From Bacteroidia bacterium (GTDB taxonomy: Bacteria; Bacteroidota; Ignavibacteria; UBA10030): a stretch of 64,000 bases of DNA. The DNA lies in NCBI GenBank assembly GCA_022180565.1, contig BQML01000002.1, positions 273,824-337,823 on the forward strand, read 5' to 3'. Made by a program: the position numbers and the translations under genes. This document shows, piece after piece, positions 35,445 through 43,414 of this stretch. How positions within the stretch are numbered: position 1 is the stretch's first letter; every line of letters begins with the position of its first letter. The notes beneath the pieces were generated by a model, which saw only the letters and a list, made by a program, of their open reading frames with translations, was not told the origin of the DNA and made no database searches.

Positions 35445-36054
35445 CAAGCCGATACCGCTGCGCAGACATCGACTCCGGCACTTGCCAGACCTTCGCGTCC
35501 GGCCCTCCTTCTTTGAGAGGAATTTTTCAGCGGGCTGTTCCATGGTGAACTGCAATGCCGACTGCTGCCGCTATGGTGTGATGATCGATCCGGAGGAACG
35601 CGATCGGATTCTTGCACATCAGGATCTCGTTCTACGGTACATGGAGCCGCATCAGGTGACCGATCCGGACCAGTGGTTCGAAGAAGAGCATCAGGATAAG
35701 GACTTTCCTTCAGGACGTGCGGTGGGTACGCAGGCCACGGAGCACGGATGCGTGTTCCTGGATTCGTCAGGTCGCTGTGTCCTTCAAAAGGCCGCCATGG
35801 GGGAGGGAATGGAGAAGTTTTTCCTGAAACCGTTTTTTTGCATTGCCTATCCGGTGACGATCGAAGATGGCGAGCTTGTGATCGATGATGCCGAGTTCGT
35901 GAACCGGACGGCCTGCTGCACTGTGGTCAAAGGCGGGAGCAGGACGGTGTTTGACGTTTGTGAAGAGGAACTTGGCTTTGTCCTGGGGGAGGAGGGTCTG
36001 AGCGAGTTGAAGGAGTTGTCGAAGAGAAAAGAGGAGCGAGGTTCCCGCGCCTAA
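35437..36054 (+). CDS. Cys-rich DUF3109-like protein (putative metal/Fe-S binding)
   Basis: CxxxxCxxxCC cluster (…CSMVNCNADCCRYG…) plus a second Cys group (…CVFLDSSGRCV…, …TACCTV…); ATGGCTGA overlap with the upstream stop. Confidence 0.5.
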   Translation: MADKPIPLRRHRLRHLPDLRVRPSFFERNFSAGCSMVNCNADCCRYGVMIDPEERDRILAHQDLVLRYMEPHQVTDPDQWFEEEHQDKDFPSGRAVGTQATEHGCVFLDSSGRCVLQKAAMGEGMEKFFLKPFFCIAYPVTIEDGELVIDDAEFVNRTACCTVVKGGSRTVFDVCEEELGFVLGEEGLSELKELSKRKEERGSRA

Positions 36055-36182: not shown

Positions 36183-36572
36183 ATGCCATTCGACGTCCAG
36201 GTCGATGCGGACCACGCTCGATGCACGGTTCGCGGGTATGGTTCATTCGATTTCAAACAGGCGGTCGATGCCCTTCTTGCAGTCACTCGTGATTCCCGTT
36301 ATGCGCCCGGCATGGCGCTTCACTTCGACGTCCGGAAAATGGAGTTCGTCCCGACGCCCGATGAATCCTGGAAGCTCGCCCTGACCCTCCGGAGCCTCCG
36401 TAAAACTCTCACCGGAAAGATAGCCGTTGTAGTCTCCGCTCCCTTGCATTACGGCGTGGCCCGCGTCATCTCCACGTATGCAGCGGTCGGCGGTATTCGG
36501 ATGAAACCGTTCTTGAAGGAACAGGAGGCGATTGACTGGTTGACTGCTGACGACCCCGGGGAAGATGAATGA
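36183..36572 (+). CDS. hypothetical 129-aa protein (possible STAS/SpoIIAA-like fold; unverified)
   Basis: Good GAGGAG Shine-Dalgarno; C-terminal …GKIAVVVSAPLHYGVARVISTYAAVGGIRMKPFLKEQEAIDWL… loosely resembles STAS C-terminal helices; no catalytic motif. Confidence 0.45.
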   Translation: MPFDVQVDADHARCTVRGYGSFDFKQAVDALLAVTRDSRYAPGMALHFDVRKMEFVPTPDESWKLALTLRSLRKTLTGKIAVVVSAPLHYGVARVISTYAAVGGIRMKPFLKEQEAIDWLTADDPGEDE

Positions 36573-36661: not shown

Positions 36662-38815
36662 TTGTTTCGCGCAATCCAGACTCGCATTGAATTCAAAATT
36701 CTGCTCCTCATTGTCGCCGTCCTTGTCGGCGGGTTTGGCTCCTTCGTTGTCCTGACCATCCAGAAGGAATCCGAGGCTCTTCTCACCCAAGCGCAGGAAA
36801 AGCTCCATCTCTTTTCTGAGTCCGTGAGCGCGGGGATCCGCAACGTGATGCTCACGGGCAAGTCCCCGTTCGCCGTCGCCTTCGTCAACGATACGCGGGA
36901 AAACCTACCGTTTGCAACGATCACCATCTACGATCGTTTCGGCCGCGAGGTTTTCCTGCGGGAAGGCGAAGGGGTAGCCTACAATGTGAAGGATGAGTGG
37001 CTGGGGAAGACCCTTGCATCGGGCACCATGACGTCGACGTCCGTGAACGTGAATGGTTCGGAGCTTTACGCCCGGTACGAGCCCCTGCGTAACCGGTCCG
37101 AATGTTGGCGATGCCACGACCCGCGGCAGCCCCTCAGAGGCGCCCTCCTTCTCGGGCTTCGCACGGAACCGATACGCCCTTCGGCGGGGATTGGAGTGCA
37201 CGACCTGGCCGGAACAGTAAGCCAATTCGTGGCCTCTGCATTCAGAACGATCATGCTTGGCGGACAGGGGGAAATGATGGATACGCTGACCGCACGTGTC
37301 CGCGAAATTCCGGGCGTCCGGCGTGTTCAGGTCTATGCGAAGGACGGGTGGCTTGCCTTCGGTCCCGAAGAAGAGGAATTGGCGGAGGACGATATCCTCC
37401 GGGTGGTCCGGAAAGGATCGGCGGACCTTTCCTTTGAGGACCGGGGATCAATCCTGAGGGTGTTTCTTCCATTGCTCAACGAAGATCGGTGCCAGGTGTG
37501 CCATGGGTCCCGGCATCCCATGCGCGGCGTGCTCGTAGCCGATTTCGACAAGCCCGTGTTGTGGCAAATGGTCCGAAGAGGAAAGGAAGCCATTGCGGCC
37601 GTCTTGCAATCGACGGTTTTCGAAGGCTTTCGCAGTATTATGCTGGTGGGCCGTGCCAGCTCGACCCGCTACTACCTGGACGCTATTCGCGCGAACGCTC
37701 TCGTGGGTGTTGTCCGGGTCTTCGATGATGAGAGGAATGAGCGGTTTCTGAATCCGCCATTGCGCGAGCGGCCGGAAATCCGCGAAGTCGTTGAAACAAA
37801 GAAACCCCTCCAGTTTATGGAAACCGTGAATGGAACGGAATACCTTGTCCGTCTGAGTCCACTGCCGAACGAGGTCCGGTGTTATTCCTGCCACGGAAAG
37901 AATCACGATATTCGGGGGGTCGTCGAAGTCACGACTTCGATGGCTGCGATCAACGATGCCGTTCGGGCAAACAAAATGCGGTCGGCAGCTGTTGGACTCG
38001 GGACGATCGTGTTGACATGGATCGTTCTTCGCCAATTTATGAAAGCGATGGTTGTCAAACCCGTCCAGGCTATCGGCCAGGTCGCCGAGCGCGTTGGGAA
38101 CGGAGATTTCACGGTCCAGGCCCATATACGGTCGAAGGACGAAATCGGGAACCTGGGCCAAAGAATCAATGATATGATTCGGGGCCTGCGCGAGAGGCTT
38201 CGTCTGCAAAAGTTCGTTTCCGAGCAGACCGTGAGGGCTGTCCGCGCGGCGGATGCGGAGGGGATCAGGCTGGGGGGCGAGCGAAAAAGAGCCACGGTGT
38301 TCTTTTCCGACATCAGGGGATTCACGGCATTTGCTGAGAGCCGGGATCCGGAGGAAGTGGTTGCCGTGCTGAACCGATGTCTTTCCCGGCAGGCCCGAAT
38401 TGTGCGCAGTCACGGAGGTGATATTGACAAGTATGTGGGTGATGAGCTTGTTGCCGTGTTCGAGGGTGAGGGAATGGCGGCGAGGGCTTTGAGCGCGGCA
38501 AGGGACATTCAAAAAAGTCTTGCCGAGCAGGATGAGGGGAGGTCTCGCCTCACGGTGGGAATCGGCATCAACACGGGAGACATGGTTATGGGGGCGATGG
38601 GAAGCGAAGATCGCATGGCCTTTACGGTCATCGGCGACAGCGTCAATCTCGGCTCCAGATTGTGCGCGGCGGCAAAAGGAGGGCAGATTCTGATCTCAGA
38701 AGAGACGGCTCGGGAGCTCGGGGAAGTTCCCGGATGGCTCAGAAAGCTCGAGCCTCTGCAGGTAAAAGGGAAGCAGGAGCCTGTTGTAGTGTATGAGGTG
38801 CTTCCGACAGAATGA
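36662..38815 (+). CDS. membrane sensor adenylate/guanylate cyclase (class III CYCc) with HAMP domain and a periplasmic domain bearing three CxxCH heme-binding motifs
   Basis: TM1 (res 12-32); three repeated modules each containing CxxCH followed by RG (CWRCHDPRQPLRG, CQVCHGSRHPMRG, CYSCHGKNHDIRG); TM2 plus HAMP; C-terminal cyclase motifs (…FFSDIRGFT…, …KYVGDELVAVF…, …IGINTGDMVMG…); TTG start. Confidence 0.85.
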   Translation: MFRAIQTRIEFKILLLIVAVLVGGFGSFVVLTIQKESEALLTQAQEKLHLFSESVSAGIRNVMLTGKSPFAVAFVNDTRENLPFATITIYDRFGREVFLREGEGVAYNVKDEWLGKTLASGTMTSTSVNVNGSELYARYEPLRNRSECWRCHDPRQPLRGALLLGLRTEPIRPSAGIGVHDLAGTVSQFVASAFRTIMLGGQGEMMDTLTARVREIPGVRRVQVYAKDGWLAFGPEEEELAEDDILRVVRKGSADLSFEDRGSILRVFLPLLNEDRCQVCHGSRHPMRGVLVADFDKPVLWQMVRRGKEAIAAVLQSTVFEGFRSIMLVGRASSTRYYLDAIRANALVGVVRVFDDERNERFLNPPLRERPEIREVVETKKPLQFMETVNGTEYLVRLSPLPNEVRCYSCHGKNHDIRGVVEVTTSMAAINDAVRANKMRSAAVGLGTIVLTWIVLRQFMKAMVVKPVQAIGQVAERVGNGDFTVQAHIRSKDEIGNLGQRINDMIRGLRERLRLQKFVSEQTVRAVRAADAEGIRLGGERKRATVFFSDIRGFTAFAESRDPEEVVAVLNRCLSRQARIVRSHGGDIDKYVGDELVAVFEGEGMAARALSAARDIQKSLAEQDEGRSRLTVGIGINTGDMVMGAMGSEDRMAFTVIGDSVNLGSRLCAAAKGGQILISEETARELGEVPGWLRKLEPLQVKGKQEPVVVYEVLPTE

Positions 38816-38845: not shown

Positions 38846-40078
38846 GTGAATCAACGCAGGCTTTACAGGACGATTGAAAGCTTTGCATCGGAGCATTTTC
38901 GGACTGACAAGGAGATTCTGAAACATGTCGTCAACGAGATCGTCAAGGATGAAAACATCGACATTAAAGGCGGTCGGATCTGGCAGTATGAACCTTCGAC
39001 GCAATCGTACAGGCTCATCCACCAGATCGGTGTGATCGAGCGTCTGGATCCTGGATTCAGAATCCCCGTTGCGACCTATCCCATCTTTCTGAAACTCTCG
39101 GATCAGCGTTCGCTGATCGCGAATGAAACCAACGCCTACCTCAGAAAGAAGGGGATCGTGAAGTACTCAGTCACCGGCGTCGGGGAAAAGCTTCCGTACG
39201 GCAAGGGCAAGGTGTACCAGTATCTTCTGGCGTTCAACTCGGACAACCTTGATCAGAGCCTCCTGGCGACGCTGAACATCATCAGCGTAGCGGTTTCATC
39301 TCTCCTCGGACGGAGGCGGCTTGAGCAAAAGGCACGGATGCTGGCCCGCGATATCGACAAGGCTCGGGAGATTCAGCAAATCATCCTCCCTCCCCCGGCC
39401 CTCAAGTTCCATTCGTACGACGTTTATGGCTTGTCAAAGCCGGACAGGATTGTGGGGGGAGATTTCTTCGACTATCTTCAGGATGAGGATGAGGATGATC
39501 GTCTGCCCATTGTCATCGGCGATGCCGCGAGCAAAGGACTGAGGGCGGCGTCTCAGGCCCTCTACATCGTCGGCGGAGTGCGGATGGGAGTGAGTTACCA
39601 TGCCAAGATTACCACGCTCATGTCCAGACTAAATCGCCTGCTTCATGCAGCGTTTGCCGAGGATCAGTTCGTTTCAATGTTCTATGCCGAGCTGTTCAGG
39701 GATAAACGCGGCCTTGTTCTCTATGCGAATGCGGGTCACAACAGCCCCTTTCTCTACCACGCGAAGGACAACAGCATCGAGGTGCTGGAGCCGACCGGAC
39801 AGGTGATGGGGCCGTTTCCGGAGGAGAAATATCTCGTTGAAAATTCCTATCTTGAGCCGGGGGACGTCCTCTTGATGTATACCGACGGCATCAGCGAGGC
39901 TCGGGACGTGTCGGGTGAAGTATATGGTGAGGAACGGATCCAGCAAAGACTCAGGGACACGGCGTCGCAGACAGCAGAGCAAATCTGCGTCGGGCTCCTG
40001 GAGGACGTCCAGAGGTTTGCGCGGGGTTCGGAGGAAACGGATGATAGAACGATTGTTGTGGTCAAACGCCGCCAGTAA
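38846..40078 (+). CDS. GAF domain-containing PP2C-family serine phosphatase (SpoIIE/RsbU-like)
   Basis: N-terminal GAF-like region, C-terminal PP2C motifs (…GGDFFDY…, …IGDAASKG…, …MYTDGISEARD…, …DDRTIVVVK…); GTG start with AGGAAAGG Shine-Dalgarno. Confidence 0.85.
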   Translation: MNQRRLYRTIESFASEHFRTDKEILKHVVNEIVKDENIDIKGGRIWQYEPSTQSYRLIHQIGVIERLDPGFRIPVATYPIFLKLSDQRSLIANETNAYLRKKGIVKYSVTGVGEKLPYGKGKVYQYLLAFNSDNLDQSLLATLNIISVAVSSLLGRRRLEQKARMLARDIDKAREIQQIILPPPALKFHSYDVYGLSKPDRIVGGDFFDYLQDEDEDDRLPIVIGDAASKGLRAASQALYIVGGVRMGVSYHAKITTLMSRLNRLLHAAFAEDQFVSMFYAELFRDKRGLVLYANAGHNSPFLYHAKDNSIEVLEPTGQVMGPFPEEKYLVENSYLEPGDVLLMYTDGISEARDVSGEVYGEERIQQRLRDTASQTAEQICVGLLEDVQRFARGSEETDDRTIVVVKRRQ

Positions 40079-40102: not shown

Positions 40103-41731
40103 ATGACGGAACAAAAGAAAATCGGCCAGGTCATTGCAGTCAACAGTGGGGCTTTGACCGTGCTTCTTGATGATGCGGTCGGCTCGCTGAAACGCGAAAT
40201 CGGCGGGAAGGTCTATTATATCGGTCAACTCGGGAGCTACGTGCTCATTCCCGTGGGGAAGCAGATTGTCGTGGCGATGGTGGCCGAGTTACGGAAATCC
40301 GACATTCCGATCAACGGCGATGTTCGCCAGAGAGTACAGCTTGTTGTAACCCTTGTCGGCACCGTCAAGGCAGGACGATACGAGCGCGGCGTGTCCATTC
40401 TTCCGCCCATCGATGCGCCGGTCTTCTTTGCGGAGGATCAGGACCTGACGGCCGTTTTCTCTATCTTTCAGAAATTCGGGTTTTCTATTGGACAGCTTTC
40501 GATGTTTGAGAAAGAACGCGCCTACATCGACCCAAACAAGCTGTTTAGCAAGCACATTGCGGTTGTGGGATCGAGCGGCTCGGGAAAGTCATGCACGGTG
40601 GCATCCATCCTCCAGAAGGTAGCGACGTTTCCCGACACGAACGTTATCCTCATCGACATCCACAACGAGTACCACGCGGCCTTCGGTGCCAACGCGAACT
40701 ATCTGCCGATTGCCGATCTCGAATTGCCCTACTGGCTGATGAACTTCGAGGAGATCCAGGAGATGTTCGTAGACGAACGGGACGAGAACGCTTCAAGCCA
40801 GATCACCGTCCTCAAGGACCTCATCGTCGCCGGAAAGAAAGGAAAGAATCCCGACCTGGCGGATTTCATCACGGTCGATACGCCTGCCTATTTCGACATT
40901 GCCGAGGTCCGGGCCCGAATGCAGTTTCTCGATACGGAGAAGGTCACGGGTATGGGCGCGGCAGGCGCGACGAAGGAAGGGCCGTTCTACGGGAAGTTCA
41001 CGCGGTTCCTCGTTCGCCTCGACAGCAAACTGAACGACGCGCGGTATGAGTTCATGTTCAAGCCGAAGCAATTTGTCGCGACGTCGTCCCTGAGCGACTT
41101 TCTGCAAAAGATTTTCGGTCCCGGGGGAAGCGCCAAGGTAACGCTGATGGACATGAGCGGCGTCCCGTTCGACATCGTCAACACCGTTGTGTCCCTGTTG
41201 GCACGCGTCACGTTCGACTTCAATTTCTGGAACCCCCACCGCCGTGATTTCCCTGTTCTCCTTGTATTTGAGGAGGCGCACAATTATCTGCCGGCGACGG
41301 GAGAATCCACGAAGGCGGCTCGCAGGACGGTGGAACGGATCGCAAAGGAGGGAAGGAAATATGGGGTCAGTTGCATGATCGTGAGCCAGCGCCCGGCCGA
41401 AGTCTCGGAAACCATTCTGTCCCAATGCAGTAACTATGTCGTCCTTCGTCTGACCAATCCCGTAGACCAGAACTACGTCCGGAAGCTGGTTCCGGACACG
41501 TTTGTGGGTTTGGTGGACGTGCTTCCTTCCCTTCGCCAGGGTGAGGCGCTGGTCGTGGGAGACGCCCTTCCTATGCCCCTCCGCGTACAAATCGATTACC
41601 CCAACCCCGAACCGGAAAGCGGAGATATCAAGTTCTTCGAGAAGTGGAAGGAAAGCGAGGCCAAGACGTTCATCCAGGACGTTGTGCAGAGATGGTGGAA
41701 GCAAGAACGAAAAGCCGCCGGGGAGGCGTAG
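40103..41731 (+). CDS. HerA-like ATPase (HAS-barrel plus FtsK/HerA-superfamily P-loop domain; DUF87/COG0433)
   Basis: N-terminal beta-rich HAS-barrel-like segment ([18 protein letters not shown]…YVLIPVG…), Walker [14 protein letters not shown], Walker [11 protein letters not shown], …[10 protein letters not shown]…; 542 aa; GAGGGA Shine-Dalgarno. Confidence 0.8.
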
Positions 41732-41789
41732 GGCGGAACAGAGCACCATTCAGGAATGTTGTACGATCCGCGGGAACAAGGAGGCTCCT

Positions 41790-42737
41790 ATGCTGATCAA
41801 ACGACCGTCTGACATCCCTTCATCCGAGATCACTCCGGAATCCGTGTATCGGAATCGCCGAACCTTTCTCAAAACCGCCGCGATAATGACCGCGGGTACA
41901 GCGGCAGCTTTTGCACTCCCGCGTTTTTCGGAGCCACAGGATCCACACTATCGGCGGCCTCCTGCCGGTCCCTTCAATACGGATGAAGACCTCACATCGT
42001 ACAAAGATATCACGACGTATAACAATTTCTATGAGTTCGGGACGGACAAGGATGATCCATCTGAGTACGCTGGAAGCCTGAAACCCCGGCCCTGGAAGGT
42101 GAGGGTTGACGGTGAAGTCGAGAAAGCCGGCCTTTATGATCTGGATGACCTCCTCAAGGGCATATCCCAGGAAGACCGCGTCTACCGTCTGCGCTGTGTT
42201 GAGGGGTGGTCCATGGTCATTCCGTGGCTCGGATTTCCGATCTCAGTCCTCTTGAAACGATTCCAACCAACCTCGCGGGCGAAGTACGTTGAGTTTACGA
42301 CGCTGAACGATCCACAGCAAATGCCGGGACTGAGCCGTCCCGTGCTTGACTGGCCCTATGTGGAGGGACTCAGGATAGATGAAGCGATGCATCCGCTCGC
42401 GATTTTTGCGGTGGGTCTCTACGGCAAACAGCTCCCGAACCAGAACGGCGCTCCCCTGCGCATCGTTGTTCCCTGGAAGTACGGATTCAAAAGCTGCAAA
42501 TCGATTGTGCGGATTCGGCTGACGGAGAAGGAGCCTCTTCCGACGTGGGTGCGGGCGGCTCCCCATGAATACGGTTTCTATTCGAACGTGAATCCTGATG
42601 TCGACCATCCGCGTTGGAGCCAGAAGTTCGAACGCCGGATCGGCGAGTTCCGGAAGCGTAGAACACAGCTCTTCAACGGTTACGGGGAACAGGTGGCGGG
42701 GCTGTATGCCGGAATGGACCTCAGGAAGCATTTTTGA
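41790..42737 (+). CDS. msrP: protein-methionine-sulfoxide reductase catalytic subunit MsrP (YedY; molybdopterin)
   Basis: Tat-like signal ([20 protein letters not shown]), sulfite-oxidase-family Mo domain (…[17 protein letters not shown]…); AAGGAGG Shine-Dalgarno; the upstream ORF extension overlapping the HerA gene was rejected. Confidence 0.9.
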
Positions 42738-43414
42738 CCAGCCTGACGCGCACTGGATTTCTTCCTGTGACTTCCAGCAAATACGTCCGCTTCATCTTCA
42801 AGCCTCTTGTGCTTGTTGCTTGTCTCCTTCCATGTTTCTGGCTGGGGTGGAACTGGTATCACGACAATCTGAGCGCGAATCCCATCGATGATGTCACCGA
42901 TACCACGGGCACGTGGACCCTCCGGTTTCTTATGATCACCTTGGCCATCACCCCTGTGCGGAGGATCAGCGGATGGAACCGTCTTCTGCAATTCAGGCGA
43001 ATGATCGGCCTCTTTGCGTTTTTGTACGGAACTCTCCATCTCTTCACGTACCTGTATTTGGATCAGTTCTTTTTATGGGAAGAGATCCTAGCCGACATTC
43101 CGAAACGACCGTTTATTACCGTCGGGTTCCTCAGCTTCGTACTGATGATTCCCCTGGCCGCAACATCGACTGATCGGATCACGAAGTGGATCGGTGGCAA
43201 GCGGTGGAATCGTCTCCATAAGCTCGTGTATGTCACGGCAATAGGCGGCGTCATCCACTATTTGTGGTTGGTGAAGGCCGATCTACAGAGACCCCTGATC
43301 TATGGCGGGATTCTGGCGCTCCTCCTGGGCGTGAGGCTTTGGTACGCACTGAAGCCGTTTCTTGTTGGAAGAATGAAGAGGGAAGGGGCTCGGAACGAGG
43401 TCGCCGGGGGATAA
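42734..43414 (+). CDS. msrQ: protein-methionine-sulfoxide reductase heme-binding subunit MsrQ (YedZ)
   Basis: 6-TM ferric-reductase-like protein aligning along its length with MsrQ; start is TTG at 42734 or possibly GTG at 42767. Confidence 0.85.

Follow-up and report, generated by a model that had tools for sequence, protein, structure and literature searches.

Three sCache_heme modules in tandem on a predicted adenylate cyclase of Ignavibacteria

The stretch of DNA analysed here (hereafter the window; 64,000 nucleotides (nt), positions 273,824 to 337,823 of contig BQML01000002.1, assembly GCA_022180565.1) comes from a member of the Ignavibacteria within the Bacteroidota and contains, at 36662..38815 on its plus strand, a complete gene for a protein of 717 residues with a TTG start. 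The list of open reading frames (ORFs), the Pfam domains and an alignment of orthologues define it as a triple sCache_heme/HAMP/class III adenylate cyclase gene. Its coordinates match exactly those in an earlier note on the window (36662-38815), which had read the product as a class III cyclase with a HAMP-coupled gas or redox sensor built from three heme c modules. The family matches of the modules, the predicted topology and the intact catalytic domain described below agree with that reading. We consider the product to be probably a two-pass, homodimeric adenylate cyclase of the inner membrane, in which a periplasmic three-heme sensor for nitric oxide (NO) or redox state would act on the synthesis of cyclic AMP (cAMP).

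The sensor region lies between two transmembrane segments (TM1 and TM2) and carries three CxxCH motifs, at residues 148, 277 and 407 (spacing 129 and 130 residues), with the same sequences as recorded in the earlier note (CWRCHDPRQPLRG, CQVCHGSRHPMRG and CYSCHGKNHDIRG). The repeats described there between TM1 and TM2/HAMP could be confirmed as mutually homologous modules, with pairwise BLASTP E-values of 3e-10 to 5e-9 and 24-31% identity over 112-118 residues. Shuffled proteins of the same composition (8 Cys, 9 His) are expected to contain 0.0011 CxxCH motifs each; the Poisson probability of three or more is about 2e-10, and none of 300,000 shuffles contained two or more. The motif triplet is therefore real and not a product of chance. 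Module 1 (residues 35-176, nt 36764..37189) and module 2 (residues 177-306, nt 37190..37579) were delimited by stretches matching PF21563 and by repeat homology, and module 3 (residues 307-438, nt 37580..37975) by alignment to PDB 3B42 and 3B47, all on the plus strand. The heme motifs, on the same strand, are CWRCH in module 1 (residues 148-152, nt 37103-37117), followed by R159-G160, CQVCH in module 2 (residues 277-281, nt 37490-37504), followed by R288-G289, and CYSCH in module 3 (residues 407-411, nt 37880-37894), followed by R418. Between TM1 and TM2, cysteine is limited to the six residues of these motifs.

A profile search for heme c families, one of the checks suggested earlier, matched PF21563 (Mcp40H-20_sensor) in three stretches (E = 7e-32, 110.4 bits against a cut-off of 27), and Pfam gave an additional weak Tll0287-like PF11845 match at residues 383-418, overlapping module 3. 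Module 3 aligned end to end with PDB 3B42 (GSU0935; phmmer E = 1.9e-11, chain residues 18-127) and also with PDB 3B47 (GSU0582; E = 1.4e-4). GSU0582 and GSU0935 are the periplasmic domains of Geobacter chemoreceptors that were crystallised with covalent heme c (PDB 3B47 and 3B42, respectively). The family sCache_heme was defined from DUF3365/Tll0287 (PF11845), takes in both of these domains, and was moved from the PAS to the Cache class (PMC12889525, a preprint of February 2026). Judged from these matches, the modules of the cyclase are true members of the GSU0582/GSU0935 heme c sensor family PF21563, now called sCache_heme. In the AlphaFold2 model the layout is alike in each module, with two N-terminal helices, strands, a short helix at the CxxCH motif (residues 146-150, 278-281 and 405-411) and a final strand after it.

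In GSU0935 the axial ligands of the heme are His144 and Met60, and NO and CO displace Met60 reversibly (PMC8396549). Met327 of module 3 (nt 37640-37642, plus strand) aligned with Met26 of the 3B42 chain, which corresponds to Met60 of GSU0935 after mapping of the chain numbering, and Met63 (nt 36848-36850) and Met198 (nt 37253-37255) fall in the column of Met327 in the repeat alignment, in a common M-L-x-G motif. These three residues were regarded as candidate distal ligands of modules 1, 2 and 3 from the repeat alignment, the alignment to GSU0935 and their conservation, which was counted in an 80-sequence alignment of the query and 79 full-length orthologues. M63, M198 and M327 were kept in 80/80 sequences, as were all Cys and His residues of the three CxxCH motifs and R159, G160, R288, G289, R418 and Q278. 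All 79 full-length orthologues contained exactly three CxxCH motifs, and the three Met residues and three motifs were still invariant in a mixed alignment with members at 23-31% identity. Mean conservation was equal in the three modules (0.48-0.54 in each), and therefore none of the modules is a relic. The earlier note had also pointed to a second His near the CxxCH motif in two of the modules as a possible distal ligand. These residues are present, H285 and H415 lying four residues past the heme His; as a distal ligand, however, the second His was rejected, being kept in 8/80 sequences for H285 (the majority having Phe) and 65/80 for H415 and having no counterpart in module 1. Placed four residues after the proximal His in the same short helix, it would also be unable to reach the opposite heme face.

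Hydropathy analysis (Kyte-Doolittle) found two hydrophobic segments, at residues ~12-33 (TM1, nt 36695..36760, window values up to 2.86) and ~440-461 (TM2, nt 37979..38044), both on the plus strand. TM1 was read as an uncleaved signal anchor; the N-terminal stub before it is short, with R3 and R8 in the stub and K12 at the start of TM1. The alignment of all 79 full-length orthologues starts at the same N-terminus, and one of them (P0001) is also 717 residues long. The HAMP domain (residues 463-511, nt 38048..38194; PF00672, 43.2 bits against a cut-off of 25) begins directly after TM2. As HAMP and an ATP-using domain follow TM2, the 404-residue segment between the TM segments, with all three heme modules, must by prediction face the periplasm; the region holding the CxxCH motifs is thus placed outside the cytoplasm, as covalent heme attachment requires. 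Genes that we take by eye to be BamA-, Skp- and LpxD/FabZ/LpxA-like are apparent in the window, and they would make the organism a diderm with a periplasm. The model of the whole protein (mean predicted local distance difference test score (pLDDT) 81.5) contains an unbroken helix at residues 2-63, in which TM1 is continuous with helix 1 of module 1, and a single helix at residues 428-479, which runs from module 3 through the membrane into HAMP and to which the last strand of module 3 leads directly. HAMP is joined to the cyclase by a helical linker (residues 512-542, nt 38195..38287), which aligned with the Cya2 linker in the phytochrome-cyclase fusion 6FHT (phmmer, query residues 496-713). 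The linker showed low pLDDT over residues 515-537 in the monomer model and a mean conservation of 0.67 across orthologues.

The roles of individual residues in class III cyclases are established, namely the metal-binding Asp residues, the pair that sets substrate specificity and the Asn/Arg pair that stabilises the transition state; adenine is specified by Lys plus Asp or Thr, and guanylate cyclases carry Glu plus Cys, Gly or Ser. The catalytic domain of the present protein (residues 543-707, nt 38288..38782, plus strand) matched Guanylate_cyc (PF00211) with 74.5 bits against a cut-off of 21.9. Its best PDB matches were Cya2 (2W01, E = 1.7e-30), CyaB (3R5G, E = 4.1e-28), photoactivated cyclases and CyaC, and Foldseek superposed the model on the catalytic domains of Cya2, CyaB, CyaC and RhGC with TM-scores of 0.77-0.86. 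By alignment to 2W01 and 3R5G, Asp550 and Asp594 were assigned as the metal ligands and Asn662 and Arg666 as the transition-state pair. In the specificity columns of the PDB alignments Cya2 has Glu/Gly, CyaB has Lys/Thr and the query has Lys590/Thr655. D550, D594, K590, T655, N662 and R666 were all kept in 80/80 sequences. The choice between ATP and GTP, which the earlier note had left to the substrate-specifying residues, thus falls to ATP: because the pair is the same as in the adenylate cyclase CyaB, cAMP is the expected product, and the output should be the conversion of ATP to cAMP, as predicted from sequence.

A full-length search found approximately 97 proteins that share this Pfam architecture and are 45-92% identical, whose named sources are metagenome-assembled genomes (MAGs) of Ignavibacteria/Bacteroidota and which are automatically labelled adenylate/guanylate cyclase. 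Scanning species-representative genomes with five closer sensor sequences as the query gave 74 loci, of which ~70 were clear relatives; essentially all were from Ignavibacteria/Bacteroidota MAGs, the best being Ignavibacterium sp. MAG-04r at 93%. The triple-module form is thus carried by about 70 Ignavibacteria/Bacteroidota species genomes. Two broken copies of the cyclase gene were also seen among the loci, at L074 5848-7261 (labelled Ignavibacterium album isolate BE2011_53_18), where a frameshift and an internal deletion fuse module 2 to the catalytic domain, and at L078 5890-6255, which ends after ~120 residues. We rejected these as natural one- or two-module sensors on account of the frameshift or internal deletion; either these genes have become pseudogenes, or the assemblies collapsed at the internal repeats.

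The three repeats were combined into a profile, and an exhaustive HMMER search with it returned 814 cluster representatives at E <= 1e-3; three modules were matched in ~50 of the top 150 matches and four in a few; one cluster holds a Myxococcales protein. A word-indexed search for other outputs of the triple sensor found the same cyclase family only. When 39 divergent triple-module proteins (~20-25% identical to each other) were scanned for output domains, a cyclase was found in 27 and HAMP in 29. Two of the 39, which belong to other lineages, carry SpoIIE directly after HAMP (e.g., P0124, 763 residues), and one (P0137, 859 residues) has the triple heme-module sensor at the C-terminus of a Ser/Thr kinase. 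From these fusions, the triple module appears to be a portable input unit whose use extends beyond cyclases. Three divergent proteins (P0132, P0145 and P0160) have three or four modules by profile and have lost the first CxxCH motif, which suggests that module 1 can become heme-free; modules 2 and 3 retain CxxCH in the full-length members examined.

These features lead us to propose the following mechanism. Each module would bind one c-type heme covalently through its CxxCH motif, with the motif His as the proximal ligand, giving three hemes per chain, and the invariant Met at the end of the first helix of each module would serve as an exchangeable distal ligand, as in GSU0935. A change in heme redox state, or the binding of a diatomic gas, most likely NO, would cause Met to be gained or lost and the Met-bearing helix to move. 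As module 3 runs directly into TM2, this movement would be passed through TM2, HAMP and the helical linker to the cyclase dimer, altering the rate of cAMP synthesis from ATP. The parts of the scheme that we infer are the loading of the modules with heme, the binding of Met to it, what the signal is, the sign of its effect on the cyclase and the step from cAMP to the phosphatase described below.

The genes around the cyclase were compared by tblastn of the window neighbours against 71 loci, which separated into two clades. In clade A, which includes the query (sensor at least 47% identical), the genes for the cyclase, a SpoIIE phosphatase, a HerA-like ATPase, MsrP and MsrQ stand in fixed order on one strand; in clade B (35-41% identical) the HerA-like gene is directly upstream of the cyclase and there is no adjacent SpoIIE gene. 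Other locus look-ups agreed with these gene-order patterns. Many clade-B loci (L042, L047, L050 and others) are from MAGs labelled 'uncultured Chitinophagaceae', and L046 is labelled Synechococcus sp. UW140; since gene content and similarity in clade B fit Ignavibacteria-like Bacteroidota, these labels may be binning or naming errors. In the window, a scan for terminator-like sites on the plus strand, started at 35900, found none up to 42799. The HerA-like P-loop ATPase gene (40103..41731, plus strand; Pfam DUF87/HerA_C) gave an end-to-end PADLOC HerA match (E = 3.9e-162) and 427.6 bits with NCBIfam HerA_antiphage_2, under the cut-off of 850. It adjoins the cyclase in both clades, on opposite sides, was also found at L003 4233-5876 and L008 3358-4953, and is more conserved than the cyclase (99% vs 92% in L009). 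The genes msrP (41787-42737; NCBIfam MsrP, 473.9 bits against a cut-off of 207) and msrQ (42734-43414; NCBIfam MsrQ, 174.4 bits against 130), both on the plus strand, encode a periplasmic methionine-sulfoxide reductase system that is kept downstream in clade A and not linked in clade B. The ORF finder places the msrP start at 41502, overlapping the HerA-like gene, and the NCBIfam alignment backs 41787. The presence of msrPQ in the cluster drew our attention because the proposed distal ligands of the sensor are Met residues exposed to the periplasm.

The phosphatase gene (38846..40078, plus strand; Pfam SpoIIE, E = 1.8e-42) starts 31 nt after the cyclase stop codon and is next to the cyclase in almost every clade-A locus whose downstream flank is long enough. 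Its product, a SpoIIE/PP2C phosphatase, would be the likeliest reader of the signal in clade A. It consists of an N-terminal alpha/beta domain (residues 1-135), a long linker helix (residues 138-180) and the SpoIIE/PP2C domain (residues ~190-408), and across species the N-terminal domain is more conserved than the catalytic domain (e.g., 69% vs 59%). In the AlphaFold2 model (pLDDT 86.8) the N-terminal domain has a GAF/PAS-like order of secondary structure. It gave no Pfam match even at E = 10 and no PDB profile match, and Foldseek on the phosphatase returned PP2C matches only; its assignment as a GAF or cyclic-nucleotide-binding domain was rejected on the missing profile matches, leaving the GAF/PAS-like order unproven. 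The domain resembles an orphan regulatory domain that binds a ligand and is a candidate receptor for cAMP. Upstream of the cyclase, a 129-residue ORF (36183-36572, plus strand) gave a SpoIIAA/STAS-like match below threshold (E = 0.008, 17.3 bits against a cut-off of 25) and occurs only in the closest relatives (L009 and L010); the phosphatase might act on its product in partner switching, or the match may mean nothing. Partner switching through this ORF was rejected as an explanation on account of the sub-threshold match and the restriction to the closest relatives.

A more far-reaching reading joins the sensor to its neighbours. The three-module Cache array, with six hemes per dimer, might form a graded or cooperative NO/redox rheostat instead of one on/off site, the invariant axial Met residues might act as oxidant switches that are converted to the sulfoxide and reset by MsrPQ, and cAMP might be read by the N-terminal domain of the SpoIIE phosphatase. 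We hold this combination to be improbable and offer it as speculation.

Among other explanations, redox sensing is the most serious, and we regard it as possible, with clearly less than an even chance. Here His/Met-ligated c-hemes would be set by the periplasmic electron-carrier pool or by O2 autoxidation, and cAMP would report respiratory electron flow or oxygen exposure; this overlaps with NO sensing, and the sole difference is the physiological input. Oxidised Geobacter domains are high-spin and turn low-spin on reduction, which was ascribed to Met60 binding (PMC8396549), and hemes in series of three are commoner in electron-transfer proteins. Ignavibacteria live across changing O2 and have four terminal oxidases (PMC3362086), and msrPQ, whose products repair oxidative damage in the periplasm, belong to the co-directional cluster of the cyclase. 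Against redox sensing, the linkage to msrPQ is missing in clade B, and the signalling-coupled family members that have been tested bind NO tightly and selectively: a HAMP-linked sCache_heme member binds NO with a dissociation rate constant of 6e-4 per s and makes no stable complex with O2 (PMC12889525), and signalling members behave as NO, not O2, sensors (2026 preprints PMC12889525 and 10.64898/2026.05.25.727664). I. album consumes NO and N2O and has no NO-producing nitrite reductase, so that NO would come from neighbouring organisms (PMC3362086). Because of the preprint data on NO, and because I. album consumes NO without producing it, we give NO a slight edge over redox as the physiological input.

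It is very improbable that the CxxCH motifs are heme-free and form a periplasmic thiol-disulfide switch or a metal-binding site. CxxC is also a classic redox-active disulfide motif, and no maturation genes occur among the long ORFs of the window; however, the His after CxxC is kept in 80/80 sequences in all three modules, the sensor has no further Cys, and the modules are homologous to domains crystallised with covalent heme, in a family of more than 5,000 members, 99% of which retain CxxCH and in which each one tested proved to contain heme (PMC12889525). A guanylate cyclase output, or a catalytically dead scaffold, is unlikely: the guanylate cyclase Cya2 (2W01) is the best sequence match among natural proteins, but Cya2 has Glu/Gly where the query and all 79 orthologues have Lys590/Thr655 as in CyaB, and both metal Asp residues and the Asn/Arg pair are invariant. 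The neighbouring HerA-type ATPase raised the further idea of a Pycsar-like anti-phage cyclase acting with it, since PADLOC matched PycC to the cyclase domain (E = 1e-28) and HerA to the neighbour with the E-value given above, and a HerA-like gene lies beside the cyclase in both clades despite their differing gene order. The PycC match is, however, confined to the shared class III catalytic fold of a protein that has a large periplasmic sensor and HAMP, the HerA score falls below the antiphage cut-off, and among the genes flanking the cyclase there was neither a Pycsar effector nor a SIR2 or DUF4297 partner, the latter two being absent beside the HerA-like gene as well. The locus is a conserved core-genome stretch (mutS, dinB and msrPQ) in ~70 species rather than a variable island, and the specificity pair is of the adenine type (Lys/Thr). 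A defence system of PycC and HerA was therefore rejected on genomic context and specificity residues, and its chances appear very slim.

Several observations weigh against a heme-sensing adenylate cyclase that signals to the phosphatase. For the triple-module family, we infer heme attachment, ligation, signal and activity alike. No cytochrome c maturation genes and no other c-type cytochromes were found among the long ORFs of the window, in which the cyclase is the only one with CxxCH; I. album has caa3- and cbb3-type oxidases, NrfAH and a tetraheme cytochrome (PMC3362086), from which the lineage can mature c-type cytochromes. A Foldseek search with the whole protein gave cyclase matches only and none to the heme modules; for the modules, a Cache-like fold is predicted from sequence homology together with the secondary structure of the model. 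The NO receptor of Pseudomonas azotoformans is from the PF11845 branch and binds heme without a distal ligand from the protein, water having been proposed instead (PMC12889525); how it responds to NO may not hold for Met-ligated modules. For the Geobacter domains, redox sensing has been proposed as well. As to the phosphatase, its N-terminal domain has no recognisable signature of cyclic-nucleotide binding, clade-B genomes have no adjacent SpoIIE gene, and the SpoIIE domain fused to the sensor in P0124 is only 31% identical to the free neighbouring one. At this identity the Rosetta-stone argument from the P0124 fusion was kept as weak support, and the link from cAMP to the phosphatase is likewise weak. 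Taken together, we consider the adenylate cyclase with a periplasmic three-heme sensor to remain the probable interpretation.

Sensing of NO or redox state outside the cytoplasm is poorly understood, and the heme c Cache family came to be seen as a likely periplasmic NO sensor only in 2026. A triple-module cyclase family would offer a direct and readily measured output, cAMP, for a periplasmic heme sensor, and a natural test of what tandem cofactor-bearing Cache modules add, be it range, cooperativity or the integration of several signals. The family is widespread in Ignavibacteria, which are common partners in communities that carry out nitrification, anammox and denitrification and exchange NO as an intermediate, and it could bear on how these heterotrophs respond to their nitrogen-cycle neighbours. 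If the speculative reading of the array with MsrPQ and SpoIIE were true, it would describe a new route in Ignavibacteria from periplasmic heme through cAMP to a PP2C phosphatase, and a new class of extracytoplasmic sensor. All components, and fusions of this general type, are already known, and the function given here is read from sequence.

The earlier note had held that heme c sensors are known mainly from Geobacter chemoreceptors and kinases and not from cyclases. This is out of date: Guanylate_cyc is among the frequent partners of sCache_heme, in a dataset whose cyclases, as far as found, are cyanobacterial with a single module (PMC12889525), and cyclase fusions of the heme c family are likewise given in preprint 10.64898/2026.05.25.727664. 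Earlier work mentioned an extra heme motif in some Geobacter and Anaeromyxobacter sensors and nothing further. The word 'tandem' occurs in neither of the two preprints (PMC12889525 and 10.64898/2026.05.25.727664), and a triple, three-Cache or tandem arrangement is likewise absent from the 2016 Cache survey. The literature thus covers the domain, the heme that it binds and its fusions to cyclases, whereas the triple-tandem form, and the present family in particular, are undescribed as far as searched.

The closest characterised relatives of the modules, GSU0582 and GSU0935, share with them the family, a CxxCH motif near the C-terminus of the module, a Met at the position of Met60 and a location between two transmembrane helices followed by HAMP. 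They differ in having one module and a chemoreceptor output rather than three modules and a cyclase, and in lacking the Arg seven residues after the heme His that is invariant in the present cyclase family. The Cache_heme-HAMP receptor of P. azotoformans is similar as a periplasmic sensor with a covalent heme c Cache domain coupled to the cytoplasm through transmembrane helices and HAMP. It has, however, a single module, lacks an enzymatic output and passes its signal to a separate Ser/Thr kinase, whereas the protein described here has three Met-bearing modules and a built-in cyclase. The cyanobacterial sCache_heme cyclases, also uncharacterised, likewise place a heme c Cache sensor on a class III cyclase; they belong to a different phylum, and the proteins of Moorena producens (A0A1D9FZV4, 599 residues) and Roseofilum (A0A1L9QSC8, 487 residues) have one module each, at residues 24-183 and 57-211, respectively, as compared with three here.

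On the output side, the class IIIb enzymes CyaB (P. aeruginosa, 3R5G), CyaC (Spirulina, 1WC0) and Cya2 (Synechocystis, 2W01) share 29-39% identity in the catalytic domain, a TM-score of ~0.8 and the same catalytic residues with the present cyclase, but have other regulatory inputs, and Cya2, with Glu/Gly, makes cyclic GMP (the product named in the PDB title). Soluble guanylate cyclase and bacterial H-NOX systems are similar in function only, as a heme NO sensor acts there on a class III cyclase with axial-ligand rearrangement as the trigger; the protein described here gave no Pfam or NCBIfam match to an H-NOX domain. H-NOX systems use non-covalent heme b in the cytoplasm, whereas the Ignavibacteria cyclase would use heme c in the periplasm, in three copies, with cAMP as the predicted product.

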